A stretch of DNA of 40,984 bases from a virus, in IMG/VR virus record IMGVR_UViG_3300019458_000015, positions 1-40,984 of that record. One strand, 5' to 3'. The notes beneath the pieces are model-generated. The model did not search any database, was not told the origin of the DNA, and worked only from the letters and a program-made list of their open reading frames with translations. The first letter of the stretch is position 1, and every line of letters begins with the position of its first letter. Made by a program: the position numbers and the translations under genes. Below are positions 1,727-40,984 of this stretch, piece by piece.

Positions 1727-1727
1727 G

Positions 1728-2195: not shown

Positions 2196-2201
2196 AACGC
2201 G

Positions 2202-2207: not shown

Positions 2208-2220
2208 TCCCTCTGCGCAG

Positions 2221-2329: not shown

Positions 2330-2380
2330 TAATAATTCTATCTCCGGCCGGGGACGGCGACGCCTGCTGGAGACGGAAGG

Positions 2381-4875: not shown

Positions 4876-4893
4876 ACTCCGCCTCTTCGTCCA

Positions 4894-5812: not shown

Positions 5813-5878
5813 AGTTCCTGATCGACCCGATGATGAGTCGCTCGCGCTGTCGTGTGGTCATGCTTCCTCCTGGTCCCG

Positions 5879-15510: not shown

Positions 15511-15516
15511 TATAAT
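15511..15516 (+). promoter_or_regulatory. Perfect TATAAT 6 nt upstream of the ATG of the HTH gene, giving a possible leaderless transcript.
   Basis: AAGGAGTATAATCCGGGTATG. There is no -35 and no TG extension. Confidence 0.25.
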
Positions 15517-18435: not shown

Positions 18436-18601
18436 AGAGCAGCTCAACGTTCGCGAAGTGCTCTGCCAGGCGCGAGAACTGAAGCTAGCTGTCTTCTTCT
18501 ACGCCAACCTGGCCATCCTGGTCCTCAACGCGTGGCTGCTGTGGACCGCCTGGATCGCCTGGCGGAACGCAGTGGCGATGACGGGGGTCGGGACTGGCTA
18601 G
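18419..18601 (+). CDS. Small membrane protein (60 aa).
   Basis: ATG at 18419 follows AGGAGACACGAGACACGA. One hydrophobic helix LAVFFYANLAILVLNAWLLWTAWIAW. Its stop shares the CTAG at 18598-18601 with the convergent gene. Confidence 0.5.
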   Translation: MMTDTEEQLNVREVLCQARELKLAVFFYANLAILVLNAWLLWTAWIAWRNAVAMTGVGTG

Positions 18602-25744: not shown

Positions 25745-28158
25745 CAGTAACGCCCGAACCCTTCCAGAACTGCTGTCCTGATCGCGAAAGCCACTTCCTG
25801 TGAGCCGGAGAGCTTCAGGGACGGTGCCCGGCGGGCTGCGTCCGGCGAGATCCGCACTGCCTGGAGGTCAACGGCGCCACTGGCGTCCCGGCCCATCCGC
25901 ACCCGGCGGGTTTCCAGCACGGCACCGTCCTCACCGACCAGCCCTACATCGAACTCTTCGCCCGCAGCGGCGTCCGCGAGTATTGTAGCCTGCTGGGGGA
26001 CCAGCCTCATACCGCCACCCGCGTCGATGGAACGCGTTGTGGCGTGCCAGGCCACTTTGTCCGAGGCGTCCCCGTAGGCGTCGGCACCCGCCGCATCAGT
26101 CCCCAGGAAGTAGACCTGGTTGTCAGTGGCGTCACCGCCCAGGAGCTGGCCGCTGTCGCCGCCACCGCGCCGAAGCCGGATGAAGGAGCGGAATCCCCAA
26201 TTCGTGTAGTAGGTCCAGCCGGGTCGCGCCTTGTTCTCGCCCGGATCCGTCGACCCTCTGACCTGGGTGTCCAGCACCAGGGCCACATTGTTCGCGGTGG
26301 CTCCCGCCGCCGGAAATGAGAGCTGCACCCGCCCCAGGTCGTCGACCTCCATCGCTGCCTGGGACCGGTAAGTCGTAGGGATAGCCCGCAGCGCGTTGTC
26401 CCAGGGCTCGCTGATGACCCAGCTCTGATACTGACCGTCCTCGGTCGCCAGCCGGGGGCTCATCACCCGGACCCCGTCGCGGGCAAAGAAGAAAATGAAG
26501 CCTCCCAGGTCGCATACCGCCCAGCGAGCGTCCAGCCCCACGTTAAGGCGGCGCTTCAGTCGAAATGGGTCGGGATCGCTTGCCAGCCAGCTCGATCCCT
26601 CCAGGGACCAAACAGATTGTTCGCAGAACACGAGCAGGCGACCCTCGTGCGGATAGAGACGCACTCCGATCTCGCCCTGGATGTCGGCCCAGCCTGGGGA
26701 CGCCGGGTCATCCACGTCGGGGATGTATCCGAACTGCTCCGGGAACCCGATCCGGCTGCTGGCCAGGCGCTCGCGGTGCCGGATCGAGCTGACGGTGATG
26801 TCCAGCGCCCACAGGCGACCGCCGTAGGCGGCATAGCTCGTCGCCTTCGGCGGGATCTCTCGCTGTTCCACCAGGCGCACCGAGATGCCGGTTGCGAACC
26901 GGCGGGCCAGCTCCCCGTCATCCATCCGATCGGTGATCGCCACCGAGGCCGCGAAGGCCGCCTCGGCTACGGACAGCGCCCTGGAGAAGGAGCTATCTTC
27001 CCGGAACCGGTAGAGGCGGACCTTGGTGGACCCCGAGGCCCAGCCCGTGGGCAGCGACCCGGTGACCGTGGCCGTAACCCCGGCGAAGATCGTGTCTTCG
27101 TCGATGTCGATGACGGCAACCGACGTCGCCGAGGTCTCCTCCAGATCCACGTCGACCCCATCAATGGTCTCGTAGCGGACGTAGGTGGCGTAGTAGCGGT
27201 AGAACCCGGCGGACATCCGGCAGTGGAGCCTGGCCTGGTCGATTTTCAGGCGGGTAGGAGTGCCATAGGTCGGGTTGTCGCTGCCGATGTAGAGGCAGGC
27301 CCAGCCGAAGCTCAACGTGCGCTCCTCGGGAGCGACCGGGTCCAGGGGGATGAGGACCTGCTCCCAGTTCTTCGTCTCTTGAACCCTGCAGCTCTTCCAC
27401 GCCTTCCAGTCAAGTGCGGAGCTGGGCAGCTCGGTGTCCGCATAGACCCCGAATTTGAAGACCGTCCTCTCCATATTGCTCCTGGCCCACAGTTCGATTG
27501 CCGAGGCCCAGCTCAGGTCCATCCCGCCGCCACGGTCGTGCCAGGCGTAGTCACCCTCGGCACCCTCTGCAGTGGCTTCGAGCTGGAGGTAGCCGTTACC
27601 CTCATAGGGGTAGGGGGTCGTCGAGCCGATACTCGACGTGATCGTCGGCGCAGCGGGGTTGGCATTCACGCTGGTGACCACGGTGCCGCTGTTGAAGCCT
27701 TCCAGAAGCTGCTGGGCCAGCACCAGGGTCAGCCCGGTGGGCGGCGTCGGGGCGACCAGGGTGGAGCCGCTTCCGCTGCCGGTCCACTTCCGCACCGCGT
27801 CGGTTCCGTTGCCGACGTAGACGAGGTCGCCGAACTGGACGAAGTCGGTGTCGCCCGCCACCAACCCGGAAAGGATCGAACTCCAGCCGGGCCCGCTAGT
27901 GTAGCGCCAGACATCCGTCCCGGCCGCCGCCAGGATGGACCGGGTAGCTCCCGACGGGTAGTAGGCCAGACCGCCCCGCATCGGGGCCGCAGCGGGAGCC
28001 GCCGCCAGGCTCTTCTTCCCCCGGCGCACCTTGAGGGAACCACCGTCCAGGTCGACGTTCTGCCCGTCGGAGAGGATGCCGTCGGGCAACTTGGTGGCAG
28101 GCTGGTCCGGGCAGATCCCCAGCCACAGTCCGAAGTGGAACTGGGCCGCCCCTCTCAT
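25744..28158 (-). CDS. Large tail structural protein (804 aa; nozzle / tubular-B-like by size and position).
   Basis: ORF 25744..28404 trimmed to the ATG at 28158, which overlaps the upstream stop (ATGA). Beta-rich sequence. Confidence 0.45.
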   Translation of the reverse strand: MRGAAQFHFGLWLGICPDQPATKLPDGILSDGQNVDLDGGSLKVRRGKKSLAAAPAAAPMRGGLAYYPSGATRSILAAAGTDVWRYTSGPGWSSILSGLVAGDTDFVQFGDLVYVGNGTDAVRKWTGSGSGSTLVAPTPPTGLTLVLAQQLLEGFNSGTVVTSVNANPAAPTITSSIGSTTPYPYEGNGYLQLEATAEGAEGDYAWHDRGGGMDLSWASAIELWARSNMERTVFKFGVYADTELPSSALDWKAWKSCRVQETKNWEQVLIPLDPVAPEERTLSFGWACLYIGSDNPTYGTPTRLKIDQARLHCRMSAGFYRYYATYVRYETIDGVDVDLEETSATSVAVIDIDEDTIFAGVTATVTGSLPTGWASGSTKVRLYRFREDSSFSRALSVAEAAFAASVAITDRMDDGELARRFATGISVRLVEQREIPPKATSYAAYGGRLWALDITVSSIRHRERLASSRIGFPEQFGYIPDVDDPASPGWADIQGEIGVRLYPHEGRLLVFCEQSVWSLEGSSWLASDPDPFRLKRRLNVGLDARWAVCDLGGFIFFFARDGVRVMSPRLATEDGQYQSWVISEPWDNALRAIPTTYRSQAAMEVDDLGRVQLSFPAAGATANNVALVLDTQVRGSTDPGENKARPGWTYYTNWGFRSFIRLRRGGGDSGQLLGGDATDNQVYFLGTDAAGADAYGDASDKVAWHATTRSIDAGGGMRLVPQQATILADAAAGEEFDVGLVGEDGAVLETRRVRMGRDASGAVDLQAVRISPDAARRAPSLKLSGSQEVAFAIRTAVLEGFGRY

Positions 28159-28499
28159 CCCAGCCTCGGGTGGAAGAAGGCTCGCTCTGGCGGCCCGGTG
28201 GGGAACGTCACTTCCTGGGCTGCCGGAGTGGTGCCTCGAATGCGGAGCAGGTATTCGCCAGGAAAGGTCAGGAACGGCGTCAAGAAGTCGGCGGCGATCC
28301 AGGTCCGTGACACCTCGCCATCGACAGCGGAGGTGATCGTTAGCGCGAAGACGTAGGTTGTCCCCGCCGTCAGGTGCTTCAGGACCAGAACGATGCTGGT
28401 CCACCCGGTCAGATTGATCGGCTCGCCGTCGGCCTTCAAGATCGCCCGGAAGGTCGGCTGCAGGTCCTGCAGGACCATCTCGAAGACATAGCTGGTCAT
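28155..28499 (-). CDS. Small beta-sandwich (Ig-like / BppU-N-like) tail protein (114 aa).
   Basis: ADGEPINLTGWTSIVLVLKH...DGEVSRTWIAADFLT...PGEYLLRIR...VTFP resembles N-terminal Ig-like tail-fibre domains. Confidence 0.4.
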   Translation of the reverse strand: MTSYVFEMVLQDLQPTFRAILKADGEPINLTGWTSIVLVLKHLTAGTTYVFALTITSAVDGEVSRTWIAADFLTPFLTFPGEYLLRIRGTTPAAQEVTFPTGPPERAFFHPRLG

Positions 28500-29116
28500 T
28501 AGCAGATCACCACCAGGGAGTATACCGTGGCCACGCCCTCAAGCGAGAACTGCTCCGACGTGACTTCGATGCTGCCGTCACACACCTCCATCGTTGGCGG
28601 CAGTAGCGCGTAGCCGTGGACGAGCGGCAAGATCGGCGGCAAGATGACGGGCGGCGGCAGTGAGAGCGGCGCATAGTAGGTCGTGACCAGCGGAACCACG
28701 ACGGCCGGGACAACAGGCGGCGGGCCGGTCCAGATCGGAGTGTAGATCGCTGGAACGTGCTGGAAGACCGGCGGCAGCGCCAGAGGCTGGTAGTAGCCGG
28801 AAACCGGCGGAACGATGACGACCGGGACGACCGGCGGCGGACCTGTCCACAGGGGAACGTAGGCAGGGTTCGGCGGCGGGTCCGGTGGAAGCGAGAGCGG
28901 CTGGTAGTAGCTGGAAACCGGCGGCACCACCACGGGCGGCACCACCATTGCCAGAACGCCGAACTGGAGGGTGTAATCGCAGCAGCTCTGTGCGGGCCAC
29001 GGATGAGGCTGGGAGAGCGGCTGGTAATACTTGTCGGGGAGGACGACGACCGGCGGCGACGGCGTGGTGAACGGGCAATGGAAGCGGCCCTGGTATTGGA
29101 ATTGGAAAGGCCCCAC
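28499..29116 (-). CDS. Proline-rich tandem-repeat protein (205 aa).
   Basis: GTG start. Four repeats of PPVV..P...YY(Q/A)PL(S/A)LPP, with (V/T)P(L/I)WTG between repeats. Confidence 0.6.
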   Translation of the reverse strand: MGPFQFQYQGRFHCPFTTPSPPVVVLPDKYYQPLSQPHPWPAQSCCDYTLQFGVLAMVVPPVVVPPVSSYYQPLSLPPDPPPNPAYVPLWTGPPPVVPVVIVPPVSGYYQPLALPPVFQHVPAIYTPIWTGPPPVVPAVVVPLVTTYYAPLSLPPPVILPPILPLVHGYALLPPTMEVCDGSIEVTSEQFSLEGVATVYSLVVIC

Positions 29117-29117
29117 G

Positions 29118-29381
29118 TCACCACGCCCTGTTCAATCGCTCCCAATTACGTTCGACCTGCGCCATCCACCGCTCGGTAGGCACGCAGTTCTCGACACACT
29201 CCTTCTTGCCGCAAGTCACCGCCGCGCAGTTGCCGCACCAACTCCGCAGCTTGCCGCTGCCGGTCCGGATCTCGAAGTGCCCGCCACAGTGCGGACACTG
29301 CTTCGTGTCGCTGTAGAGTTCTCGGCCCCCGTCCGTGTAGCGGATGATGTGGCCATCCGGGCGCCTGGCTCCGTGCTCCAC
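29118..29381 (-). CDS. Cys-rich zinc-ribbon-like protein (87 aa).
   Basis: ORF 29118..29504 trimmed to the GTG at 29381, which overlaps the upstream TAG. Contains CPHCGG, CGNC and C..C..C. Confidence 0.4.
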   Translation of the reverse strand: MEHGARRPDGHIIRYTDGGRELYSDTKQCPHCGGHFEIRTGSGKLRSWCGNCAAVTCGKKECVENCVPTERWMAQVERNWERLNRAW

Positions 29382-29839
29382 TATTCCCGGAACAAGATCG
29401 TCCCGCGCAGGATCAACGCGGTGGTCGCGTTGTCGAGCCGGAACCCGATCCCTTCGTTCGCGGCCATCACAGAGACCAGCTCCGAGCCGTAGTAGGCCAC
29501 CCACCGAGTCTGGGTCCGAAGGTTGGCGTTGAACTCCAGCAGCACCTTGCCGGAGACGTAGGATGTCGGCTCGGCAGTATGGGCGTTCTTCGTGATGGTG
29601 AGAGCGGGCGGGTCGGTAGGGTCCAGCGGCGCAGGCGTGACACTGGTCCCAGTCCCATCGTTAGTCGACGCGTATCGCTGAAGCTGGGCTCGCCAGGCGT
29701 AGTCGTTAGGAGACTCCGAGTTCCCGATCACCACATCGTAGATGATGGGCCTGATGTCTGCCTTTGCCGTGAGGGTGGCGCCGCTCTTCGCGCTGGTTCC
29801 GGACGCCGTCAAGACCGGGATAGAGTAGTTCTTGGCCAT
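29381..29839 (-). CDS. Hypothetical beta-rich virion protein (152 aa).
   Basis: Complete ORF in the tail module. Confidence 0.55.
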   Translation of the reverse strand: MAKNYSIPVLTASGTSAKSGATLTAKADIRPIIYDVVIGNSESPNDYAWRAQLQRYASTNDGTGTSVTPAPLDPTDPPALTITKNAHTAEPTSYVSGKVLLEFNANLRTQTRWVAYYGSELVSVMAANEGIGFRLDNATTALILRGTILFRE

Positions 29840-29848
29840 CGTTTGCCT

Positions 29849-31111
29849 CTAGTAAGCTATGACGGGGATCACCGCAGCGTGCGGCTGCGAGAGGCCCGCC
29901 CAGTATTTGTCCGGAGTGGTCACGCCCCCAAACCCGAAGACGCAGAGCTGCGTTGCCGCCGCGTCGTTGGTCGACCACGTAACTGTAACCCCTCCGGGGT
30001 CCAATGTCGTATGATCGGCCTCGGCCTGCACGGTTGGAGGTTCATTGTTGCTCTTGACGTAAACCTTCGTGGTCGACGAGATGGCGTCGGTAGTGCTGTC
30101 CGCCTGGGCGTCGTCGTCGTTGGTGGCGCCGCTCTCCTCACGAGTGCCGTCCGAAGCGCCGAACCCGAGCCGGTTGTCGTCGGTGGTCGCCGCGATCACG
30201 GCTTCCTGCCAACTGGCGATCCCGTAGACGACCGGCGAGAAGCTCAATCCCGAGATTAAGGTCTGGTCGACCGGGGCGCCCCCCGTGCTCTTGTTGACGC
30301 TGCCGCAGACGGCGTTCTTCAGCGCGATGCAGAGCGAGAACCGGTGATTGGCGGTAGAAGGCGCCGTGGTGAGGTTCAGGGTGAACCCGTCCGCATCCAG
30401 CGAGACCCGGTTGCTCCGCTCCGTGACGGAGCCGGTGTTGCTGATGTCGAGGGTGTGACCATCGGTGATCTGGCGCCGCGCCGTGTTGGTGGTGGCCTGA
30501 TTGTCCTGGGAGTTCAGAGCAATGGACCACTCACCACTGCCGGTCATGGCGCCAAGGAACTGACGGATACCGGCCGTGGTCGACGGGGGGCCGGTATTCG
30601 ACGCGCCCACGCCCATCGAGAACACGAACGTCGGGGCCACGCCTGCCCCGGTCTTCGAATGGTTGCCGGTAGAGGTAGGCGACTGCCAGTTGATCAGCCC
30701 GGCGCTGATGTCGGCGCCGCCGAGCGCGATGTAGTGAATGATGGTGGCATTGGCATCGTTCGTTGTCCACGAGAGGGTCCACCCGTCGCTGTCGAAGCTC
30801 GTCAGGTCACATTCAGCGACCAAAGCCCCCGCCGCCGACAGGATGGTCAGGGCCTTCGAGGCGATCCGCTTGTTGCAAACCGAGCTGGCCTGGGCGTCCT
30901 GGCTGGCCATCGCCATCGACCGGAACGCCGAGGAAGAGACGGCCCAGCCCAGCGCCCATTGCAGATCGGCGGCAAAACTCCCGTTACTGGTCCGCCCTTC
31001 GGTCCACATGATGAGGACCTTCGGCGTGAACCCGACGCCGGTGACGGCCTGGCTGGCGGGAGCGCCGCCGGTGGATTTGGCGAACTGGCCTACGCGGCCG
31101 AGCAGCGCCAA
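29849..31111 (-). CDS. Structural protein built from three tandem domains of about 135 aa (putative fibre / receptor-binding).
   Basis: TTG start. The repeat openers are GQFAKSTGGAPASQAVTGVGFTPKV, WQSPTSTGNHSKTGAGVAPTFV and GSVNKSTGGAPVDQTLISGLSFSPVV. Each unit ends in a D(S/A/P)(D/G)G(W/F/V)T(L/V).(W/L)(T/S)T-type motif. Confidence 0.5.
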   Translation of the reverse strand: MALLGRVGQFAKSTGGAPASQAVTGVGFTPKVLIMWTEGRTSNGSFAADLQWALGWAVSSSAFRSMAMASQDAQASSVCNKRIASKALTILSAAGALVAECDLTSFDSDGWTLSWTTNDANATIIHYIALGGADISAGLINWQSPTSTGNHSKTGAGVAPTFVFSMGVGASNTGPPSTTAGIRQFLGAMTGSGEWSIALNSQDNQATTNTARRQITDGHTLDISNTGSVTERSNRVSLDADGFTLNLTTAPSTANHRFSLCIALKNAVCGSVNKSTGGAPVDQTLISGLSFSPVVYGIASWQEAVIAATTDDNRLGFGASDGTREESGATNDDDAQADSTTDAISSTTKVYVKSNNEPPTVQAEADHTTLDPGGVTVTWSTNDAAATQLCVFGFGGVTTPDKYWAGLSQPHAAVIPVIAY

Positions 31112-31459
31112 TCAATTGCTTCTGAAGGCGTTCAGCGCCTTCTGCGCCGCGGCAAATTGCCGGAGCGCCGTCACCGCGGCAGCCGTGGTGGACGCTGCCT
31201 CGATAGCCGTCAGCGCGTTGGTGACTGCCGTCCGCAGTGCCAGGGCCTTGGCCCGCACCCGCACCGGGTCAACGTCGGCGTCGTCGATCTCCTGGGCGGT
31301 AGCGTTCCGGATCACGCCATCCGCCTGGACCACCTGGTAGCCCGCGATAGACGTGCCGTCAGGGATCGGGTGAGCGATCTGCCCCGGCTGGAGCGGGTAG
31401 TTCTGCTCGATAGTCGTGCAGATGCAGACCCGGTTGGCGGTGAGGATTGCGAAGGCCAT
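31112..31459 (-). CDS. Hypothetical protein (115 aa).
   Basis: Complete ORF with a TGATG overlap upstream. Confidence 0.55.
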   Translation of the reverse strand: MAFAILTANRVCICTTIEQNYPLQPGQIAHPIPDGTSIAGYQVVQADGVIRNATAQEIDDADVDPVRVRAKALALRTAVTNALTAIEAASTTAAAVTALRQFAAAQKALNAFRSN

Positions 31460-31752
31460 CAGGCCCCCAGCGGCGGCGTTTCCGGCTCGTCTTCGACCGG
31501 AGCCTCCGCCCTGTCGTGGGTGTAGATGAGGCGCAGCGTCCGCCCATCGCCCAGATGGACGGTGTCCTTGAGATACTTCCCTGACGGGTTGCTCTTCGGG
31601 TGGTAGGGCGGACCGAACTTCTCCTCGATCATCTGCCCGATCTGGCGATTGAGGTCGTCGGCGTCCGGAATGCGCTTCGCCCTCTTCAGGAGCGCCTCGC
31701 CCCGCTTGAGGATGCTGCGCCAGGGCTCAGGGATGAAATCTTGCCAGCCCAT
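31459..31752 (-). CDS. Hypothetical protein (97 aa).
   Basis: ORF 31459..31902 trimmed to the ATG at 31752, which overlaps the upstream TGA. Confidence 0.5.
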   Translation of the reverse strand: MGWQDFIPEPWRSILKRGEALLKRAKRIPDADDLNRQIGQMIEEKFGPPYHPKSNPSGKYLKDTVHLGDGRTLRLIYTHDRAEAPVEDEPETPPLGA

Positions 31753-32111
31753 CACTCGTCTCCCAGCGGCGCCACTTCCGGCTCCGGCTCGGTCTTCTCG
31801 GCGGTCTTCGTGACCGAGGCGCTGGTCACGTGGGTTTCGGCGAAATGCTCCTTGAGCGCCGAGTGGCTCGCCGCCTCGTGCTCGCAGCCGGGGAACGGAC
31901 AACGCTGCTTCGCCCGCGACACAGGGGCGGTTCTGCCGCGCGGAGCATGGGCCACGAACCCGTGCGGAATGCCCAGGCGGGCCAGCTTCAGCGACACGTG
32001 TTCTGCCACCTCGGCCGGGAGCACCACGCCTTCTTCGACCATGATCTCGGCGCCGTCGTAGTTGATTGCGCGGGGAGTTTCGATGCTCTCGACCAGGATC
32101 ATCCCATTCAT
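31752..32111 (-). CDS. Protein with a classical C2H2 zinc-finger spacing (119 aa).
   Basis: ORF 31752..32168 trimmed to the ATG at 32111. CPFPGCEHEAASHSALKEHFAETH fits C-x4-C-x12-H-x4-H. Confidence 0.5.
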   Translation of the reverse strand: MNGMILVESIETPRAINYDGAEIMVEEGVVLPAEVAEHVSLKLARLGIPHGFVAHAPRGRTAPVSRAKQRCPFPGCEHEAASHSALKEHFAETHVTSASVTKTAEKTEPEPEVAPLGDE

Positions 32112-32121
32112 AGTGTCGCCC

Positions 32122-32832
32122 CTACGTCCACATATCTGCCGGGTCGACCGCGATCCGCTGGCTGCCACCGGCGCGGGCCCGCTCGATGATGAGCTTCAGC
32201 TCGTCGGCCTGGCGCTCGCTCTCCGCCAACCAGTGCTGGACACGGACGGCGTCGGCCCGGCCGAAGGACTGCTCTCTCAACGCCATATAGTAGCAGATCC
32301 GGGGCAGCAGACGGTCGTGCTCGGCCTCGGAGAAGTAGGGGCGGGCCGTCCCGTCCGTGATGACACTCGGGTAGACGTAGGCGTTCAGCGCCACGCCGCT
32401 TGCCACGGCCTGGTCGGAGCCGGGGAACATCGCCAGCACCCGACCGGCGGCAGTGGAGAGCCCTTCGGTCACCCAGGCATAGAGCGGCTGCCCGTTCTGG
32501 CCGTCCCGGATGCTGCCCAGGTCCTGGCGGGCGTAGGTCTCCTCGCTGAAGTCGACGTAGGTCCACCGGCCGTCGTAGAGGATCTCCACGGTCTGCCGGA
32601 TCACCTGGATCACTTCCTCGCCCAAGGTCACCAGCGACAACCCGCTGCTTCCCAGCGGCAGCGTGTAGGTCTTGGGGTCGCGGTAGAGCCTGCACCTGGC
32701 TGCCAGCCAGCGATGCCCCCGGTTGAACATCCGGTCCATCACGGACGACGGATAGCTCGGGTCCTCGCGGTCGCCTGGGAGGCCGAACTCCTCCAGGGAT
32801 GCCCGGCGGAAGTCTTCTACGGTCACAGCCAC
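32122..32832 (-). CDS. Hypothetical head-tail connector-sized protein (236 aa).
   Basis: Complete ORF (GTG start) between the capsid and tail genes. The functional suggestion rests on position only. Confidence 0.4.
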   Translation of the reverse strand: MAVTVEDFRRASLEEFGLPGDREDPSYPSSVMDRMFNRGHRWLAARCRLYRDPKTYTLPLGSSGLSLVTLGEEVIQVIRQTVEILYDGRWTYVDFSEETYARQDLGSIRDGQNGQPLYAWVTEGLSTAAGRVLAMFPGSDQAVASGVALNAYVYPSVITDGTARPYFSEAEHDRLLPRICYYMALREQSFGRADAVRVQHWLAESERQADELKLIIERARAGGSQRIAVDPADMWT

Positions 32833-33305
32833 CTCGAATGGTAGCCCGCTGCCACGTCATCGGCGTGCCAGCGGCCGTCACCCTCGCTCTCGCGGCGGAC
32901 CGCCTCGTGGTAGTATTCGGCGCCGTCGCGGATCTGCGCGCCGCGCGCCGCCGCCTTCTTCGCTGCCAGGCGGGAGTTGTAGTCCCGGATGCTCTGGACG
33001 GCCCGGAACCGCTCGGCGGCTCGGATGCCCTGGTTGCGCCGCTTCACCAGGTTGATGCAGATGGCGTCCCAATCGAAGGGCGGCCGGAGCAGCACGCCCC
33101 GGTCATCCGTCAGCACGTCGAGAGGCGACCACTGCGGCAAGTTCCGGTCGTCGAGCGCGGGTCGATAGTGCGGCCCCCAGATTTCCCACTGCTGCAGCGC
33201 TCGGTTGAACGCGACGAACAGGGTGCTGTCGACTGCCCGCACGCGCGAGGTGCCGATCCGGGCGTTACTCTCGGACAGGCTCAGCTCAGGCGGCAGATCG
33301 ACCAT
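32823..33305 (-). CDS. Hypothetical protein (160 aa).
   Basis: Complete ORF whose ATG directly follows the upstream TAA. Confidence 0.55.
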   Translation of the reverse strand: MVDLPPELSLSESNARIGTSRVRAVDSTLFVAFNRALQQWEIWGPHYRPALDDRNLPQWSPLDVLTDDRGVLLRPPFDWDAICINLVKRRNQGIRAAERFRAVQSIRDYNSRLAAKKAAARGAQIRDGAEYYHEAVRRESEGDGRWHADDVAAGYHSRWL

Positions 33306-34154
33306 TTAGACGTAGCCGAGGCACCTCTGCGGACCCCATTCCAGCTTGCGCAGGTAGGAGGCACCGCTGCCGGTGCCTTGTCGGCGGCAGATGAAGCTGG
33401 GCACCAGGAAGTCGCCGCTGTCGAAGACGTGGGGGGCCGCGATGGTTGGCGCGTGGAGCACGGCTGGCCGGACGCCGCCGATCTCGAACAGGACGCCGCC
33501 GTTGCTGGACAGGCGGACCGTCAGCTCCTTCGTAGCTCCGTCCGCCCAAGTCAGCAGGCTGTCCGTGGTCGTCACAGCGCCGCTGTTCTTCCTGACCCTC
33601 GTCTGGATCAGGGCCGTGGCTGCTGACGCCACGATGCCCAGGTAGGCAAAGTCGGTGTAGTTGGCGTTGTAATCCAGAGCCGCGTCGACGGCCTGGACCC
33701 TACGGAACCCGCAGATCACGGTGTTCAGGTCCGACACGTCCACCAGGTTCATTGCGAGCCGGATGTAGGCGTCGTCGGTCCCGGCCTTGAAGTGGCCGCC
33801 CGGCACGTCGCTGTCTACTGCGATCAGAGGCGGGTAGAACTCCCAGCCGTCGTCCGTTGCCGGGGTCCCGTTCTCCAGGTCCATCCCGCTAGCACCCTGG
33901 TTGAAGGTCCAGGCCGGGGTCCCTGGGTCGTTGAAGTAGGTCTCAACAACAGAGATTCCGTCTGTGAGCAGGTTGACGGAGTTGTCGGCGCCCCAGGATG
34001 CGGCTGACCCATCCGCCCTGAAGGCCCGAACCGGCTTCTGGAGAAGGTCCAGGTAGAGCGCGTCGTGGTCCATCTTGACCGGGTTGATCTTCCGGTCGAG
34101 GAACGCGCCGACGCGGCGCAGGAAGCTGTCGGTGACGGATCGTTCGGTGATCAT
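33306..34154 (-). CDS. Hypothetical beta-rich protein after the major capsid gene (282 aa; possible decoration or lectin-fold protein).
   Basis: Complete ORF preceded by AGGAGGGG. Function is guessed from position only. Confidence 0.4.
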   Translation of the reverse strand: MITERSVTDSFLRRVGAFLDRKINPVKMDHDALYLDLLQKPVRAFRADGSAASWGADNSVNLLTDGISVVETYFNDPGTPAWTFNQGASGMDLENGTPATDDGWEFYPPLIAVDSDVPGGHFKAGTDDAYIRLAMNLVDVSDLNTVICGFRRVQAVDAALDYNANYTDFAYLGIVASAATALIQTRVRKNSGAVTTTDSLLTWADGATKELTVRLSSNGGVLFEIGGVRPAVLHAPTIAAPHVFDSGDFLVPSFICRRQGTGSGASYLRKLEWGPQRCLGYV

Positions 34155-34176
34155 CTCTTACCCCTCCTGGGGATGA

Positions 34177-34204
34177 CTCCGGGGCCGGTCGGTCGACCCC
34201 GGAG
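34177..34204 (-). terminator. Stem-loop just downstream of the major capsid gene. Possible attenuator, with no U tract.
   Basis: The 8-bp arms CTCCGGGG (34177-34184) and CCCCGGAG (34197-34204) flank a 12-nt loop, in the 71-nt gap after the capsid stop. Confidence 0.3.
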
Positions 34205-34225
34205 CCTTGGCTCGCCCCTCTGGCG

Positions 34226-35494
34226 CTAGGACGAAAGGGCCGTGTAGCTGATGTCGCCCAGCCGGGTATGCATGTTGCACCGCCTGCTGGCGAGGTTCTG
34301 GCCGGTGAAGAGCCTGCTCTCGAAGGCGTGCTTGCGGTCGGTGTTCGCGAGGAACCTGCTGCCGGTCCGGTCTTCCCACTGGATCTCGTCGATCACGAAG
34401 CGGATGAGGTCGCTCGTCCGCAGGAAGAACACGGCGTGGTCGGCGGCGTAGAAGTCGTCGATCCACGGCACCTTGCCGCCGCCTGGCACCGTCCAGGCGA
34501 GGGACTTGTAGCCGTTGTCGAGCGTCATCTCGCTGGCGTCGAACCGACGGTCGGCAGCGATGAAGTCGGCAGCTACCTGGACGACCTCTGGCCTGGAGAT
34601 GATCGCCTGCGGCGGCAGTCCTCCCTGGACCGTGCGGCTCTTCTGGGCCGCCTTGTCCATCAGGTTCCGGCTCCACGGACGCAGGGTGCCACCCGCGTCC
34701 AGGGTGTTGGCCTTGAGCTTGGTGTTCGTGGACCTGGCCAGGTTCTGGAAGGTTCCGACGTAGTCGCCGTCGTCGACGATCCCCAGGAGACCCATCGCTT
34801 CGACACCCCGACTGTCCTCCGAGAAGAGGAAGTCGTCGTTGTCGATGGTGTTGGTGCAGGTCAGGGTGTTGGTGTCGTAGTTGATCGCCGTGATCGCGTT
34901 GCTGTCCGACGAGAGTGCGCCGCCCGACTTGGCCGTGTAGGCGTCCACGACCTGGCCCACTTCCAGGTTGCGGGCGCCGGGGTAGCCGATGCCGGAGCTG
35001 TCCACGTCGGGGCTGGCATACATCACCGGGTTCACCGTGCCGCCACCGGACTTGCACCGCGCCAGCCACCCCGTGCCGTCGCCGAAGGCATACTGGCGGG
35101 CCAGGTTGCGCCGGGTCGCCTCGACGGCGCCGGAGACCTCGGCTTCCAGGCCGCTGGCGAAGGCCGCGCGGTTGCTCTGCGACTGCCGGATGAATTGATG
35201 GGTCAGCTCGATCACGGCGTAGTGCCAGGCCATCGAGACCCGCATCTGCGGGTAGGACCCGGCCTTCGCCGCAGGCAGAGCCGCGTTCTCTCCCCTCGAC
35301 CCGTAGCCCGCCATTAGGGCGCTCCTGGCCCCGATCACGACGGCGCGCCCGTCCCACCCGGACGGGTTGGTGCTGCGCTCGACCAGCGACAGGAACGCCA
35401 GCTCGCGCTCCACCCAGTTCGCCAGCTCGGCGCTGTCGTAAACGTCTTTGAACAGCCCGTCAAGGGCCGATACACTCGCAACTGCATCCGCCAC
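34226..35494 (-). CDS. Major capsid protein (putative, HK97-fold class).
   Basis: A 422-aa ORF directly after the scaffold-like gene. GTG at 35494 lies 1 nt after the scaffold TAA, with GGAGGGGA upstream. The track start at 35530 would overlap the scaffold gene. Confidence 0.6.
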   Translation of the reverse strand: MADAVASVSALDGLFKDVYDSAELANWVERELAFLSLVERSTNPSGWDGRAVVIGARSALMAGYGSRGENAALPAAKAGSYPQMRVSMAWHYAVIELTHQFIRQSQSNRAAFASGLEAEVSGAVEATRRNLARQYAFGDGTGWLARCKSGGGTVNPVMYASPDVDSSGIGYPGARNLEVGQVVDAYTAKSGGALSSDSNAITAINYDTNTLTCTNTIDNDDFLFSEDSRGVEAMGLLGIVDDGDYVGTFQNLARSTNTKLKANTLDAGGTLRPWSRNLMDKAAQKSRTVQGGLPPQAIISRPEVVQVAADFIAADRRFDASEMTLDNGYKSLAWTVPGGGKVPWIDDFYAADHAVFFLRTSDLIRFVIDEIQWEDRTGSRFLANTDRKHAFESRLFTGQNLASRRCNMHTRLGDISYTALSS

Positions 35495-35495
35495 G

Positions 35496-36446
35496 TTAGA
35501 TCCCCTCCGGCACGGCTGACGCCAGGGCACTCATCACCCGCCGCTCCCGCTCTTCGGGGGTCATCTCCCCGAGCGGCTTGCGGTCGAACGGCGCCGGTGT
35601 CCCCCCGCCGATGGCTACCGGCGGAGTGGCGGCGAGGTCCGACTGCTTCTGGGCGGCATAAGTCCCCAGGATCGTCCGATTGTAGTCCTCGAACCCCCCG
35701 AGAAGCTCCCGCGCCACCCCGTCCAGAGTGGCGTCTATGCCCATCTCGCGAGCGATCCCGTAGTTCGCCAGCAAGGCGCGCTTGAGGCCGTTCCCCAACG
35801 CCGGGTTCTCCAGCACTGGGTAGGTGGTCGCAAGTTGCGCCAACTGGGCGGATAGATCGCCCCGGATGCGCTCGACCTCGGCCTGCTGGCCCTGATGCTG
35901 CAGTTCGCGGAAGCTCGCCTGGAACGTCTCGAACTGCTGCTGCTGGTCCCACAGTGCCCGGTGGAGCGCGTAGACCTCGTCGCTCACGGTCAGGGGGTCG
36001 ACCCCCCTCTCGCGCAGAGCGTCGTGGAACTGCTGCTCCGGGTCGATGGTCGCGGGTATCTCGGGAGCCGCCTGCTGCTGGGAGATCGCCCGCTGGAGAA
36101 CCTCCTGCGGGGTCAGGCCCAGCGTCTGGGCGGCTCCCAGGACCGAACCCCACTGCTCCTGCTGCTCCCGCAGGGCATTGCGCTCCTGCAAGACCTCGCT
36201 GAAGCGAGTGTAGTCTACCGGTCCCGGTGCAGGCTCCTGGGCGGCCGGGGCCGGGGGCGTCCCCTCGGATACCGGCGTCTGGGCCTGCGGGGTGACTTCA
36301 GCAGAGACCGCCTCGTCGGCGAGCCCGCTGAGGTCGTAGGTTCCGATGGCTGCCATCCTCCCGGCGGAGGACGAAAGGTCGGAGCCTGTCGAGGATGCCT
36401 GTCCGGGCGCGGCCCCGGACCCTGGGTCTGTCGCTAACTCGGGCAT
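35496..36446 (-). CDS. Scaffolding protein (putative).
   Basis: 316 aa with a low-complexity P/A/S N-terminus, then a Q/E/L-rich helical region, immediately upstream of the capsid gene. Confidence 0.55.
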   Translation of the reverse strand: MPELATDPGSGAAPGQASSTGSDLSSSAGRMAAIGTYDLSGLADEAVSAEVTPQAQTPVSEGTPPAPAAQEPAPGPVDYTRFSEVLQERNALREQQEQWGSVLGAAQTLGLTPQEVLQRAISQQQAAPEIPATIDPEQQFHDALRERGVDPLTVSDEVYALHRALWDQQQQFETFQASFRELQHQGQQAEVERIRGDLSAQLAQLATTYPVLENPALGNGLKRALLANYGIAREMGIDATLDGVARELLGGFEDYNRTILGTYAAQKQSDLAATPPVAIGGGTPAPFDRKPLGEMTPEERERRVMSALASAVPEGI

Positions 36447-36501
36447 CGTCGTGTGGTGGCCGTGTCGTGTGCCAACGTCTTGTCAGCCGGTGCGGCTGAA
36501 T

Positions 36502-36580
36502 TCTCCAGGCGGGGGCTCGAACCCCGAACTGGCGGGAGGAAGCAGCGCCAGCGCCCCAGCGGCGCCGAGAGAACCAGGAG
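36502..36580 (-). ncRNA. tRNA-like element: canonical T-arm and a 6/7 acceptor stem, but a non-canonical D/anticodon region. It is not a callable tRNA.
   Basis: On the - strand: CTCCTGG (36580-36574), TT, ..., CGGGG-TTCGAGC-CCCCG (36526-36510), CCTGGAG (36509-36503), A. The middle hairpin has an 11-nt loop CTGCTTCCTCC. TATAAT lies about 16 nt upstream. Confidence 0.3.
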
Positions 36581-36596
36581 ACACATCCTTGCGGGC

Positions 36597-36627
36597 ATTA
36601 TAGCGCGGCCCTACGTCGTGTAGCCAA
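36597..36627 (-). promoter_or_regulatory. Promoter-like element upstream of the tRNA-like / antisense element.
   Basis: The - strand reads TTGGCT (36627-36622), a 19-nt spacer, then a perfect TATAAT (36602-36597). Confidence 0.3.
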
Positions 36628-36967
36628 GTAGCGTCCCGTTGACCTGCCCGACAGTCACGGACGGCACGTTCAGGGTGATCGCCTCGTTCTCCCCGGCCAC
36701 GATTGGGATCGGGAACATAATCTCCAGCCGTCCGTTGAAGGGGAACGCAGGCGGGATGTAGTCCGTAAAGATCACGCTCGCGGCGCTCTTGATCGTCACG
36801 GTCAAGGCTCCGGCGTTTCCGAGCGCGCCGGTGTGGACGCTCTGGACCACGAACCCGGTCACGACGTGTCGCTGGTTGGCGACGGCCGCCTTGGTCACCG
36901 TGAGGGCGCCGTTGACCGACCCGGCGGCGGTCTCTGACCAGGTGCTCTGGCGCTGGGTGGCTGGCAT
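36611..36967 (-). CDS. Hypothetical beta-rich protein (118 aa), first gene of the late block.
   Basis: Complete ORF about 100 nt downstream of the promoter-like TTGCCG-17-TATAAA. Confidence 0.55.
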   Translation of the reverse strand: MPATQRQSTWSETAAGSVNGALTVTKAAVANQRHVVTGFVVQSVHTGALGNAGALTVTIKSAASVIFTDYIPPAFPFNGRLEIMFPIPIVAGENEAITLNVPSVTVGQVNGTLLGYTT

Positions 36968-37073
36968 CTACCCGCCGTCCGGCATCGAAAGTCTCCTCGC
37001 GAATGGCGGCGAGCCCCAAGATCCTGGGTAGCTGGGTAGCTGGCTGGGGCCCGCCGCCGTCGCGTCCGCAAGA

Positions 37074-37102
37074 TTTATAGCCGCCTCGGGAGGTGTCGGC
37101 AA
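37074..37102 (-). promoter_or_regulatory. Promoter-like element for the late - strand block.
   Basis: The - strand reads TTGCCG (37102-37097), a 17-nt spacer, then TATAAA (37079-37074), about 100 nt upstream of the ATG at 36967. Confidence 0.4.
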
Positions 37103-37246
37103 CTTCCACGCCGAACCTGGCAGTGGCGAGTTTACACGGCGACATCACCGCCGCACCAAGCTCCGGCCGCGAGGCCGGGGAGTACGCTGAAGGGGTCCGC
37201 TCCGGGTGATGTCCGGTGCGGGCCTCTTCTCGTTCCAGGCAACTGA

Positions 37247-38166
<920 letters not shown>

Positions 38167-38170
<4 letters not shown>

Positions 38171-38844
38171 CCGACCACCACTCGCCGATGCGGGTGGCGA
38201 TAGCAGCGGCCCACACAATGCTGGAGGCCGCGCTCGCTAACCCGAAGCCTGCCAGCACCGCGTTATACAACGCCTGGGAGCTGGCGTTTACTGCCGCAGG
38301 GCTGGCGCCGGAAGACGTGACGAAGGCGGCTGGGATTGCGCTGTTGCGCACCAAATTTTTCCCCACGCCCAGCGAGATAGTGGAGTTCGCCCTGGCCGGT
38401 GACGGCGGGATGGAAGCTCGCGCCGAGCACGCGTGGCAAACCGTGTTCAGGCTCGTCCGAACAGTCCACTCGTCGGGGTCACTGGACCTTCAGGACGTGG
38501 AAGGCGACGGGTGCTGTCTGGCTGCTATCGCGCGGATGGGGTGGCAGCGGATCTGCGAGAAACTGCATCAAGACAACGTGTTGCTCTGGAGGTCCGAGTT
38601 CGTTAAGACCTACACTGACTGCGTCCGAACAAACGAGGAGGTCTCTCGGGTCGCCGGTATGTGCGAGCGCGAGAACGCTGGGCGGTTCGACCTGACGGAC
38701 CCGACGTTGATCGGGCGCCCGGATCGCCTCGGGCCACCGCGCCTGAAGCCCGCACTCCCGGAACCCAAGATGACCGATGAGGAGATACAGGCGGCGCTGG
38801 CTGTCGGGAAGGCCCTGGTTGCCGGAGCAGGGTCCGCGCGATGA
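38167..38844 (+). CDS. Hypothetical protein (225 aa), replication-module neighbour.
   Basis: GTG start overlaps the upstream TGA and is preceded by CGGAGACACACCGTC. Confidence 0.55.
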
Positions 38845-39308
38845 GACCCTACGCCGCCAAGACGGACGTCTCCATCGAACGGACACGCGCGGAAATCGAA
38901 CACCTCATCCGCCGCTACGGCGCTACCGGGTTCGGCTACGCCTGGCTGGGCGGTCAGGCGACCATCTTCTTCCAGATGGAAGGCCACACCGTCCGGCTCT
39001 ATCTACCGATGCCCGACCCGGACGACCCGGAGTTCACTCACACCCCATCCAAACTGCTCCGCCGCAGCGATGAAGCGCGAGAGTCCTGCTACACCCAGGC
39101 ATGCCGCGCCCGGTGGCGTGCGCTCTCCCTGGTCCTGAAGGCCAAGCTGGAAGCGATGCAGACCGGAATCACTACCTTCGAAGATGAGTTCCTGGCCGGA
39201 ATCGTCCTGCCTAACCAGCAAACCGTCGGCGCCTGGGCGAAACCCCAGCTACAGGCCGCGCTCGACGCCGGTAAGATGCCAGCCCTGATGCCGGGGTGCG
39301 AACAATGA
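38841..39308 (+). CDS. Hypothetical protein (155 aa).
   Basis: ATGA overlap. Complete ORF. Confidence 0.6.
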   Translation: MRPYAAKTDVSIERTRAEIEHLIRRYGATGFGYAWLGGQATIFFQMEGHTVRLYLPMPDPDDPEFTHTPSKLLRRSDEARESCYTQACRARWRALSLVLKAKLEAMQTGITTFEDEFLAGIVLPNQQTVGAWAKPQLQAALDAGKMPALMPGCEQ

Positions 39309-39475
39309 CACTTCAGCCTCGCGCCTATCCTGTCGTCGAGCTGGCCGATCCGCAGGGCTGCTCGCGCTGCCAGGAGCCGACACGACACCTGCTCAATGAG
39401 GGCACGCGCCTGATCTGCAGGCGCTGCCTCTCCGAGATCCTGACGGCCGACCCGAGGGAGGAATGCGAGCAATGA
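39305..39475 (+). CDS. Small zinc-ribbon protein (56 aa), not in the ORF track.
   Basis: I translated this by hand: MTLQPRAYPVVELADPQGCSRCQEPTRHLLNEGTRLICRRCLSEILTADPREECEQ. ATGA overlaps occur at both ends. Contains CxxC...CxxC. Confidence 0.45.
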   Translation: MTLQPRAYPVVELADPQGCSRCQEPTRHLLNEGTRLICRRCLSEILTADPREECEQ

Positions 39476-39855
39476 CTGACGAGAAGCTAGCCGAGGTCGT
39501 GGCCTCGCTGGAGGGAGCGGTGCTGGCCCGGATGGCGGAGAACATCCCCATCGACCCGGAGGTGTTTGGCGTATACCGCGAAGAGGGTCGTTGGGTGCGT
39601 GCAAACGAGCAGTGCTCAATGTGCTTGGTGGGATCACTCCTATACGGAGAGGATGCGACGGGACCCGGCGGCATCCGCTCGGCCGCCGCTCTTCTCCTCG
39701 GCATCGACCGTAGTGAACTGATCGCGATAGAGTGCGGCTTCATGGCGCAACTAGAGCACTTTGGCACAGCTCTCTACGCCGCCGGACTCGGCATCCGCGA
39801 GCGCACCATCGGACTACCGGAGCAGGGACAGGCTGGCGGAGAACTGCCGCAATGA
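39472..39855 (+). CDS. Hypothetical protein (127 aa).
   Basis: ORF 39463..39855. I prefer the ATG at 39472 because of its ATGA overlap with the preceding small ORF. Confidence 0.55.
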   Translation: MTDEKLAEVVASLEGAVLARMAENIPIDPEVFGVYREEGRWVRANEQCSMCLVGSLLYGEDATGPGGIRSAAALLLGIDRSELIAIECGFMAQLEHFGTALYAAGLGIRERTIGLPEQGQAGGELPQ

Positions 39856-40175
39856 AATCTCCCCTGGTGGACTGCTCCATCTCGGAACCGCTCATCGGCG
39901 TCGAGCGATCGCTGTTCACGGCCGCGCTTATGCGAGCCATGCTAGCCAAGGACGTGACGCCCGAGGAGCGTGCTGACCAGGCGATCAGGCTATACACCAC
40001 CGCGCTGGAAACGAACCGCAAGATACGGGCGTGCCATCAGGCTGCGTGCGAGGCAAAGGAGGAGATGGATAAGGTGATCAGCCAGTGCAAGCACGAGCTG
40101 TCAGTGCATCACTACAGGAGCTGCGCCGAGGACGATGAGTTCAACCGGTGCCTGGCGTGCGGGAAGGCGTTCTAG
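39852..40175 (+). CDS. Hypothetical protein (107 aa).
   Basis: ATGA overlap. C-terminal CLACG. Confidence 0.55.
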   Translation: MKSPLVDCSISEPLIGVERSLFTAALMRAMLAKDVTPEERADQAIRLYTTALETNRKIRACHQAACEAKEEMDKVISQCKHELSVHHYRSCAEDDEFNRCLACGKAF

Positions 40176-40387
40176 TGGCTGAAGTCCACTACTACTGCGT
40201 TACCTGCAACGCGTGGTTGGATGCGAAGACCCGTATCAAGCCCGCGTCCTGCGGCACCCTGGTCCACCCGAAGCCGCGCGGCACCGGCGCCTGCGGCCCC
40301 ATCTCGCGCGTCGAAGTGGAAGAGGACGACACGCTGCCGTGGGAGCCTCGGGTGAGCGGCCGGTATCGAGGAGGAGAACCAGGATGA
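40175..40387 (+). CDS. Hypothetical small Cys-containing protein (70 aa).
   Basis: GTG at 40175 overlaps the upstream TAG. Contains CVTC. Confidence 0.4.
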   Translation: MAEVHYYCVTCNAWLDAKTRIKPASCGTLVHPKPRGTGACGPISRVEVEEDDTLPWEPRVSGRYRGGEPG

Positions 40388-40512
40388 AGATGTTCGATGA
40401 CCCCATCGGCTACATCAGCGACAGTGAGCTGATCGTAGCCATCGCCGCAGCGGACGTGTGGCCGGGGGGGAATAGGTCTAAACAGGTGGTTCGCCAAGCT
40501 GCCGGATGGTAG
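40384..40512 (+). CDS. Hypothetical 42-aa protein.
   Basis: ATGA overlap, preceded by GAGGAGGAGAACCAGG. Confidence 0.4.
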   Translation: MKMFDDPIGYISDSELIVAIAAADVWPGGNRSKQVVRQAAGW

Positions 40513-40546
40513 CTGCATCACCTGACCGAGCGGCGCCGTCCTGGCC

Positions 40547-40777
40547 GTGCGCTATGGATACAGCCCTGACCGCATAGAGCGCCTCGCCGAACGCGAGGAA
40601 GAATACAACGAGACCTTAGTCGCACATCAACTGTGGGGAAACGAGGTCGATACAAGCAGGGCATTGGCCAACGTCGCCGACGCCGTGGGCCTGACGGTCA
40701 GCGACTACCTGCAACTTCTGAACGACAAACCTGCCGAAGTCGCTAGGTTACTCCGGCTTCACCTGGAGGCGGGCTAA
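40547..40777 (+). CDS. Hypothetical protein (76 aa).
   Basis: Complete ORF with a GTG start. Confidence 0.45.
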   Translation: MRYGYSPDRIERLAEREEEYNETLVAHQLWGNEVDTSRALANVADAVGLTVSDYLQLLNDKPAEVARLLRLHLEAG

Positions 40778-40974
40778 TGCCCACCAATGAAGACCGCAAC
40801 CACTGGGAAAGCATCCTAGAGGAGCGGATCAAGGACATCTCGGCGCTGCAGCTTGAGCTGAACAGCGTCATGGCCCGGCTCATCGCCGCCAGAAAGAACC
40901 TGATCAGTTGGATCAGGGTCACGCCATACCCCGAACCAGGGCCGCTGGCCACCGACCGAGAGGATCTCGCCTGA
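40777..40974 (+). CDS. Hypothetical coiled-coil protein (65 aa). Its 3' end lies in the terminal repeat and is coupled to the Topo VIA-like gene.
   Basis: TAATG overlap upstream. Its stop overlaps the ATG equivalent to position 113. Confidence 0.5.
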   Translation: MPTNEDRNHWESILEERIKDISALQLELNSVMARLIAARKNLISWIRVTPYPEPGPLATDREDLA

Positions 40975-40984
40975 TGAAGATTGC
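40862..40984. repeat. Right copy of the 123-bp terminal direct repeat.
   Basis: Identical to 1-123. Confidence 0.95.

Follow-up and report, generated by a model that had tools for sequence, protein, structure and literature searches.

Eukaryotic long noncoding RNAs, organelles and a few bacterial noncoding RNAs offer well-documented cases of tRNA mimics that act as signals for processing or stability. Such mimics have not been documented as a recurrent feature of the leaders of phage scaffold/capsid operons, and for tRNA-like elements in phage leaders our literature search returned analogs and no direct precedent. Here we analyze such a leader in IMG/VR record IMGVR_UViG_3300019458_000015, a metagenomic, podovirus-like phage genome of 41 kb with 67% GC (40,984 nt in full; hereafter 'the window'). 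It corresponds to contig k141_154777 (41,002 nt) of ENA ERZ27251176. The gap upstream of its scaffold gene contains, on the minus strand, a conserved, non-decoding tRNA-like element, which we tentatively interpret (probability of about 45%) as a tRNA mimic that would direct the processing or stability of the scaffold-capsid mRNA from its leader. An earlier note on the same DNA had proposed a different role for this gap, namely that a late small RNA, or a processed leader fragment, pairs with the ribosome-binding sites of early genes and shuts off their translation.

The closest structural analogs are mascRNA/menRNA (MALAT1, MEN-beta; Rfam family RF01684) and the t-elements of plant mitochondria, which are tRNA-like signals for processing by RNase P and RNase Z within longer transcripts (PMC4919922). 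Like these, the window element is predicted to be a non-decoding cloverleaf with a good T-arm inside a longer transcript. Unlike these eukaryotic and organellar elements, it is located 5′ of a coding region in a phage late operon and its processing is putative. It is also not a member of the mascRNA-menRNA family, as it scores 23.9 bits against a gathering threshold of 42.5 bits. The C4 RNA of P1/P7 is reported to be released by RNase P from the leader of a longer transcript by way of a tRNA-like acceptor stem, after which it blocks ribosome-binding sites by base pairing (PMC5320573; Hartmann et al. 1995 via PMC4919922). C4 acts in lysogenic immunity, through internal loops and on targets within its own transcript. 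In the window, the putative seed would instead belong to the 5′ leader and acceptor strand and would act in trans on many early mRNAs; no genes for lysogeny were found. The CI RNA of phage P4 is grouped with the C4 antisense RNA type.

YrlA RNAs combine T-arm, D-arm and acceptor-like modules and are modified by tRNA enzymes; that of Mycobacterium smegmatis, with its 7-bp acceptor stem, is an RNase P substrate to which CCA is added (PMC4201824). They differ from the window element in having a neighboring Rsr/Ro60 gene as well as a Ro-binding stem; PHROG and Pfam scans detected no such gene among the window proteins. In functional terms, the proposed arrangement also resembles the Escherichia coli thrU-tyrU-glyT-thrT-tufB tRNA-mRNA co-transcript and the RNase III punctuation of phage T7 mRNAs. 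There, too, an abundant mRNA is freed by cleavage at an upstream structured RNA, and the end hairpins affect stability. Those systems rely on genuine tRNAs or RNase III hairpins, whereas the window would use a single non-decoding tRNA mimic.

Architecture of the scaffold gene leader

The gap under study comprises 164 nt (36447-36610, minus strand). Its downstream limit follows from the start of the scaffold-like gene, which we placed at the ATG at 36446 because the first 30 residues align with the N-terminus of the scaffold protein of the relative L003; the gene caller had chosen a different start, 36356. The parts of the element and the segments that follow it are listed below in the direction of transcription.

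36574-36581, minus strand: 5′ acceptor-like strand UCUCCUGG (register A), pairing with CCUGGAGA at 36509-36502 through seven Watson-Crick pairs and one U.U
36565-36572, minus strand: alternative 5′ strand UCUCUCGG (register B), which takes the place of register A on that 3′ strand when longer transcripts adopt their minimum-energy fold
36551-36565, minus strand: D-arm-like hairpin GCGCC-GCUGG-GGCGC, overlapping the next stem by 2 nt
36528-36552, minus strand: predicted anticodon-arm-like hairpin with a 7-bp stem GCUGGCG/CGCCAGU and an 11-nt loop CUGCUUCCUCC (36545-36535)
36510-36526, minus strand: canonical T-arm CGGGG-UUCGAGC-CCCCG, identical at 15 of 17 positions to L001 8805-8821
36502-36509, minus strand: 3′ acceptor-like strand CCUGGAG plus A, read from the sequence and abutting the T-stem as in tRNA
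36483-36499, minus strand: hairpin UCAGCCG-CAC-CGGCUGA right after the tRNA-like fold, without a U-tract (z = -2.4 for the 54-nt tail)
36447-36482, minus strand: CA-rich leader up to the scaffold ATG at 36446, read from the sequence as having no Shine-Dalgarno (SD) sequence

The acceptor-like strands and the three arms are predicted to form a cloverleaf-shaped, tRNA-like fold of ~80 nt. Its T-arm is canonical, with a 5-bp stem, the G53-C61 pair and a UUCRANN loop, and abuts the 3′ acceptor strand. The acceptor stem has six of seven Watson-Crick pairs both in the window and in the relative L001. In the window, two registers compete for the 3′ strand: ViennaRNA slightly favors register B in longer transcripts, and AAGGAUGUGUCUCCUGG then becomes a weakly structured 5′ leader. 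Compared with shuffled sequences, the presence of two alternative 5′ strands has P = 0.04 in the window and 0.61 in L001, and is marginal as statistical support. A sensitive Rfam scan of 36350-36750 yielded a single match, the mascRNA-menRNA family mentioned above (E = 0.012).

More familiar identities were discarded. The element is not a canonical tRNA, as ARAGORN with default settings found no genes, Rfam returned nothing at gathering thresholds, and there was no tRNA-clan match even at E <= 10. Nor is decoding possible with central loops of 11 nt on a 7-bp stem in the window and 4 nt on a 14-bp stem in L001 in place of a 7-nt anticodon loop on a 5-bp stem. The same Rfam scan gave no C4 match at E <= 10 and no YrlA match. 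None of the tRNAs in 185,579 representative genomes contains the 21-nt T-arm-plus-acceptor sequence, and this rejects a phage attachment site (attP) corresponding to the 3′ end of a host tRNA; the only match was a chance one in a Nitrospira coding sequence. The stable terminal hairpin that the earlier note had pointed out is indeed predicted, yet it is the T-arm of the tRNA-like fold. It is not an intrinsic terminator, since it lacks a U-tract, the T-arm being followed by CCUGGAGAAUUC.

Similarly, the loop presented in that note as an anti-SD sequence, CUUCCUCC, exists as the 11-nt loop on the 7-bp stem, but is better explained as part of the anticodon-like arm. The loop together with the 3′ edge of the stem (UCCUCCCG, 36534-36541, minus strand) is complementary to CGGGAGGA within the scaffold open reading frame (ORF) (36356-36363, minus strand), that is, to codons 27-31, just ahead of the internal AUG picked by the gene caller. 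The loop also pairs with the initiation region GGGAGGAAUG at 39463 on the plus strand (-22 kcal/mol) and with a minus-strand gene start at 31902 (-27 kcal/mol). All three pairings may simply reflect SD/anti-SD similarity.

The ribosome-binding region of the scaffold gene, CACACGACACGGCCACCACACGACG-AUG, is CA-rich and has no SD sequence. Late genes in general are mostly translationally coupled and have a weak SD or none, and early genes have a strong one.

Conservation of the tRNA-like element in related phages

Relatives of the window are scarce. No DNA-level relatives were present in the phage collection searched, and only five capsid homologs with >40% identity were found among 5.8 billion proteins. 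The search with the scaffold protein returned no homologs besides itself, nothing close came from a profile search with the capsid, and no relatives could be confirmed from the first metagenome scan. Scans with gapped DNA patterns retrieved only tRNAs and unrelated loci.

The most informative relative is L001 (52% capsid identity). In the gap just upstream of its scaffold gene it has CGGGG-UUCGACU-CCCCG, which matches the T-arm of the window at 15 of 17 positions; little else is shared between the two gaps. After this T-arm, GGUGCG pairs perfectly with CGCACC located ~60 nt upstream, the two enclosing a 14-bp hairpin. At minimum energy, the L001 element folds into exactly this three-way junction, which is of unusual stability (z = -3.4) and in which a 6-bp acceptor stem is stacked on the T-arm and accompanied by a long central arm with a 4-nt loop on the 14-bp stem. 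The acceptor strands of the two phages differ at most positions on both sides and still pair. Against RF01684, only the T-arm of L001 matches (15.6 bits). A third T-arm, CCACG-UUCGACC-CGUGG, is located at 2890-2906 of L008 (31% identity), ~100 nt upstream of the scaffold gene. Compared with the window, its stem covaries, with three doubly substituted pairs, and the UUCGA of the loop is invariant.

Such structures are infrequent. T-arm hairpins outside true tRNAs occurred ~10 times in 1.3 Mb of loci. A T-arm followed by a 3′ strand having at least six of seven Watson-Crick pairs upstream was found 11 times in 1.44 Mb, compared to two in shuffled sequences. Of the 11 matches, three are real tRNAs, two are the window itself (present again as L087, which is the same contig) and one is L001; the others come from two coding-sequence matches, one of them repeated in four overlapping loci. 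For any given 170-nt gap, the chance of a T-arm-plus-acceptor signature is thus ~3 in 10,000. The element travels with the scaffold gene, and its upstream neighbor differs between genomes, being an opposite-strand gene for 150 aa in L001 and the 118-aa gene in the window.

Putative transcription signals and a possible role of the element

Two promoter-like patterns and one candidate -35 are present on the minus strand upstream of the element:

37074-37102, minus strand: promoter-like pattern TTGCCG-17 nt-TATAAA, located ahead of the 118-aa gene in the divergent region
36622-36627, minus strand: possible -35 TTGGCT, 19 nt upstream of TATAAT, a suboptimal spacing not accepted by the promoter scanner
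36597-36602, minus strand: perfect -10 hexamer TATAAT, 8 nt past the stop codon of the 118-aa gene

The TATAAT reported in the earlier note is present at 36602-36597, as claimed, and makes a plausible -10 element; transcription would start near A36590. It is followed by GCCCGCAAGGATGTGTCTCCTGG. TATAAT occurs once per strand, about what base composition predicts. However, two of the three TATAA[A/T] sites on the minus strand are in the two gaps that precede late genes, which suggests non-random placement. No TTGACA-like -35 was found 16-18 nt from TATAAT; the nearest candidate, TTGGCT, falls in the final codons of the 118-aa gene. The consensus sigma-70 promoter scanner accepted neither of the two minus-strand gap sites and reported nothing. 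No terminator-like sites were found in 36200-37400, which speaks against the discrete late small RNA of the earlier note; its other variant, a processed leader fragment, would fit tRNA-type processing. The sole plus-strand TATAAT (15511-15516) is in the gap upstream of a RecT-like gene (start ~15739) that bears the early motif described below, and may be a middle promoter.

We propose that this gap serves as leader to the scaffold-capsid transcription unit, which would probably have its own -10 element. The transcript would enter the ~80-nt tRNA-like fold ~10 nt past its start and continue through the hairpin into the CA-rich ribosome-binding region. By mimicking the 'top half' of tRNA, the fold could be recognized by host tRNA enzymes: RNase P at the 5′ side, RNase Z or RNase E at the 3′ side and, possibly, enzymes that modify the T-loop. 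Cleavage would free the abundant scaffold/capsid mRNA, which codes for the two proteins of virion assembly made in largest amounts, from upstream RNA, leave it with a defined, hairpin-protected 5′ end and release a stable tRNA-shaped by-product. The presence of a T-arm in the scaffold-upstream gaps of the window, L001 and L008 is consistent with such a role, as are the placement of -10-like hexamers and the precedent of tRNA-like RNase P/Z processing signals and RNase P-matured phage regulatory RNAs. If host tRNA enzymes do act on the element, it would offer the phage a simple means to boost or uncouple the expression of its most abundant structural proteins, and would add a bacterial-virus case to the 'tRNA punctuation' theme.

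A number of observations weigh against this interpretation. In stability, the window element does not exceed GC-matched shuffles (z about 0), and the acceptor pairing with G.U allowed is not significant (P = 0.31 for the window and 0.91 for L001). The competition between the two acceptor registers, the lack of an encoded CCA at the 3′ end and the U.U mismatch in the acceptor stem (A.G in L001) are also unfavorable. Relaxed ARAGORN runs (80% threshold, with or without introns) produced tRNA shapes in the gaps of both the window and L001. We discarded this evidence because the same settings gave 89 calls in the 41-kb window and 634 in 410 kb of shuffled sequence. The L008 match is independent evidence only with respect to position, since the search pattern demanded a paired stem. 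The element is absent from the scaffold gaps of L003, L007 and L088; being carried by just two or three lineages, it is not essential to the module. The sequence features, the T-arm conserved at the syntenic position and the rejection of a canonical tRNA, an attP and a terminator are established; transcription from TATAAT, recognition and cleavage by tRNA enzymes and any effect on the mRNA or its expression are steps that we infer. Finally, the match of the leader to the early initiation motif has to be left as a coincidence or a relic. The tRNA-likeness therefore rests on the conserved T-arm in a tRNA-like position, the covariance-model score and the robust fold of L001.

Early initiation motif and its antisense copy

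The gap also contains a segment complementary to a motif found at the initiation sites of early genes:

36574-36588, minus strand: GGAUGUGUCUCCUGG, exact complement of the early-gene initiation motif, the plus strand reading CCAGGAGACACATCC
14603-14614, plus strand: example of an early initiation region, AGGAGACACATC
12292-12303, plus strand: early initiation region CCAGGAGACACA
1041, 9286, 9951, 11067, 12294, 13634, 15728 and 18401, plus strand: further motif sites, with near-copies at 38153 and 16924

The exact complementarity pointed out in the earlier note holds: the antisense segment, GGATGTGTCTCCTGG at 36588-36574 of the minus strand, complements the early initiation regions perfectly over 10-15 nt. 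It is located in the leader and acceptor strand, not in loops, and its 3′ half is UCUCCUGG, the acceptor-like strand of register A. Across the whole window, AGGAGACAC occurs ten times on the plus strand and never on the minus strand, and nine of these copies are 0-12 nt upstream of the start codons of plus-strand genes. The 10-mer AGGAGACACA has eight copies, all on the plus strand, compared to 0.02 expected on both strands from shuffles. Seven are initiation sites of plus-strand genes and the eighth, at 36576-36585, is an orphan. Given these counts, the orphan copy is not trivially random. Chance is an unlikely source of the copy at 36576, with a probability of roughly 0.01-0.02 as judged post hoc.

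On the plus strand, CCAGGAGACACATCC is followed by just a 4-codon ORF (TTG CGG GCA TTA TAG, 36589-36603), so that a real gene behind the motif at 36576 was rejected. A minigene similar to lambda bar was rejected as well, as there is no sign of plus-strand transcription there. The AGGAGACAC(A) motif marks a subset of early genes and usually stands behind a C-rich tract, CCCGCCCC. Its ACAC extension is not complementary to the usual 3′ end of 16S rRNA.

A duplex scan of 52 initiation regions ranked the motif-bearing early genes, and no others, as the ten best predicted targets of the 5′ leader, with energies of -18 to -26.5 kcal/mol. Random windows of this GC-rich genome average -13.3 +/- 3.1 kcal/mol (first percentile, -21.3), and therefore only three to five targets exceed the noise. 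Opening the seed is predicted to cost ~3.5 kcal/mol in the minimum-energy fold (register B; ViennaRNA).

Among phages with related ATPase genes, the extended motifs are different, AGGAGAATC in L221, GGGAGAATC in L214 and AGGAGATCT in L088. AGGAGACAC is thus specific to the window phage, and the pair of motif and antisense segment cannot be traced across genomes. In L001, most of whose early region is off the contig, the element includes no antisense segment and no complementarity to the phage's own initiation regions, and the genes in the available sequence share no extended initiation motif. Taken together, the case made in the earlier note has partial support: the complementarity exists, it is statistically unusual, and its energetics are plausible.

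Alternative explanations

The explanation closest to that note holds that the leader RNA started from TATAAT carries GGAUGUGUCUCCUGG as a 5′ seed, pairs with the AGGAGACAC(A) initiation regions of early genes and blocks their translation late in infection. The RNA would be a processed leader or the leader of the abundant scaffold-capsid mRNA itself, and the tRNA-like body would be a stabilizing scaffold or an RNase P maturation signal, by analogy with C4 RNA. The rarity of the 10-mer, whose other copies are all early initiation regions, argues for this explanation. The identity of the ten best duplexes, the low cost of opening the seed in register B and its position directly behind a plausible -10 element argue for it too. 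So does the precedent of C4, an RNase P-cut RNA whose loops occlude ribosome-binding sites. Yet L001 keeps the tRNA-like element in the absence of both the antisense segment and, in its available sequence, a shared initiation motif, and other relatives use different motifs, so that the pairing does not appear to be a family trait. A discrete small RNA would need a terminator, which is missing, as is a -35 at 16-18 nt. In register A, half of the seed (UCUCCUGG) is buried in the acceptor stem, and RNase P cleavage would split the seed. Rfam gives no C4 match, few of the targets rise above the GC-rich background, and stoichiometric silencing of at least nine mRNAs requires very high levels of RNA. 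On balance, we consider this explanation improbable. Its boldest version is more improbable still: the leader of the most abundant late mRNA would be a global antisense silencer, its first ~17 nt pairing with AGGAGACAC(A) of at least nine early genes, and the tRNA mimic, by switching registers or through RNase P cleavage, would expose, release or destroy the seed. If antisense pairing did operate in addition to processing, it would represent a new kind of early-to-late switch, in which one late RNA masks a motif common to many early genes; the silencer version would tie the shut-off of early translation to the accumulation of capsid mRNA.

The orphan copy of AGGAGACACA at 36576 may instead be a relic or a non-functional orphan at a recombination joint, derived from the initiation region of an opposite-strand gene that disappeared when the sequence upstream of the element was rearranged. 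The antisense relation would then have no function and the tRNA-like element would be independent of it. This account of the orphan motif is as simple as the antisense model, and we regard it as unlikely, although less so than that model. The copy is on the same strand as all the others, and a TTG start codon follows the 10-mer at the usual distance of 3 nt, even if it opens only four codons. Moreover, the sequence preceding the element is a joint of rearrangement: in L001 an opposite-strand gene abuts the element at this point, and the homolog of the 118-aa gene is located elsewhere. That opposite-strand gene has no homolog in the window, which rejects it as the source of the relic. The copy at 36576 lacks the C-rich tract found ahead of most true motif sites, and the 10-mer is perfect where decay would be expected; the relic idea is, in addition, inseparable from selection on the acceptor stem. 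The probability that remains for the orphan motif goes to coincidence with the acceptor-stem sequence. Reading the element as a processing signal accommodates either outcome: the match to AGGAGACACA could be a by-product of the acceptor stem, in which UCUCCUGG pairs with CCUGGAGA, or such a relic. Very improbable, in our view, is a decaying tRNA pseudogene or a tRNA-derived attP with no function at the RNA level. The overall tRNA-like shape with a broken anticodon arm would fit it, and so would the real tRNA genes next to the capsid gene in the distant relatives L042 and L063. Neutral decay, however, would not spare a T-arm, which is conserved at 15 of 17 positions despite 52% capsid identity and a scrambled remainder of the gap. 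Both halves of the fold are present rather than just a 3′ fragment, the 21-mer corresponds to no tRNA in the representative genomes, and PHROG and Pfam scans of the window found no integrase or recombinase domain.

Genome organization

The genes adjoining the gap are the following:

36611-36967, minus strand: 118-aa late gene, upstream of the tRNA-like element, with a homolog far downstream in the late operon of L001
35496-36446, minus strand: scaffold-like gene, 316 aa, assigned from its synteny and alignment with the gene that precedes capsid in L001, L003, L007 and L008
34226-35530, minus strand: major capsid gene, downstream of the scaffold-like gene

Late genes occupy the minus strand from 36967 down to 18598, in the order 118-aa gene, scaffold-like gene, major capsid (phrog_14242), adaptor and a 1648-aa internal virion protein. 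Terminase and portal are encoded in a second minus-strand block. The plus strand codes for replication and recombination functions, including a replication initiator, a topoisomerase-like protein, an ATPase, an HNH endonuclease, RecT and RusA. The blocks extend over 928-8011 (minus), 37247-40984 together with 1-1054 (plus) and 18598-36967 (minus). An oppositely oriented replication module thus splits the terminase/portal block from the scaffold/capsid block. In L001 and L088, terminase, portal, scaffold and capsid are contiguous, and a hot spot of rearrangement seems to lie at the portal-scaffold junction. The replication-initiator-like protein encoded within 37247-38170 (plus) contains ~11 Ser-Gln repeats (QSQSQS...), which correspond to a hexanucleotide microsatellite in the gene.

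Other tRNA-related and leader elements

In the wider group, tRNA or tRNA-like genes are associated with the capsid module. With default settings, ARAGORN identified tRNA genes directly downstream of the capsid gene in L042 (5743-5827, Pro-GGG, 85 nt) and L063 (5747-5817, Met-CAT, 71 nt), both distant relatives with 26% capsid identity. Non-canonical T-arm elements with a long central hairpin were also observed in two contigs unrelated to the window, at L090 1335-1470 (same contig as L213, 41.5 kb, viral) and at L130 3190-3270. Both are ~30-40 nt upstream of SD-led genes, and the 5′ half of the L090 element overlaps the end of the upstream ORF. tRNA-mimic leaders of this sort may be more widespread in phages.

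Two short repeats were noted in the leaders of relatives. The gap of L001 contains the 9-mer CACCGTTCG twice (8696-8704 and 8744-8752), possibly as an operator-like repeat; one copy lies within a small hairpin where the opposite-strand gene begins, and the other spans the 5′ acceptor strand of the L001 element. A different 9-mer, CTGCTTCCT, is common to the leaders of L008 (2955-2975) and the window (36537-36545, minus strand). In L008 it makes up the 5′ side of a hairpin that pairs with the SD-like GGGAGGUG, ~40 nt upstream of the scaffold start.

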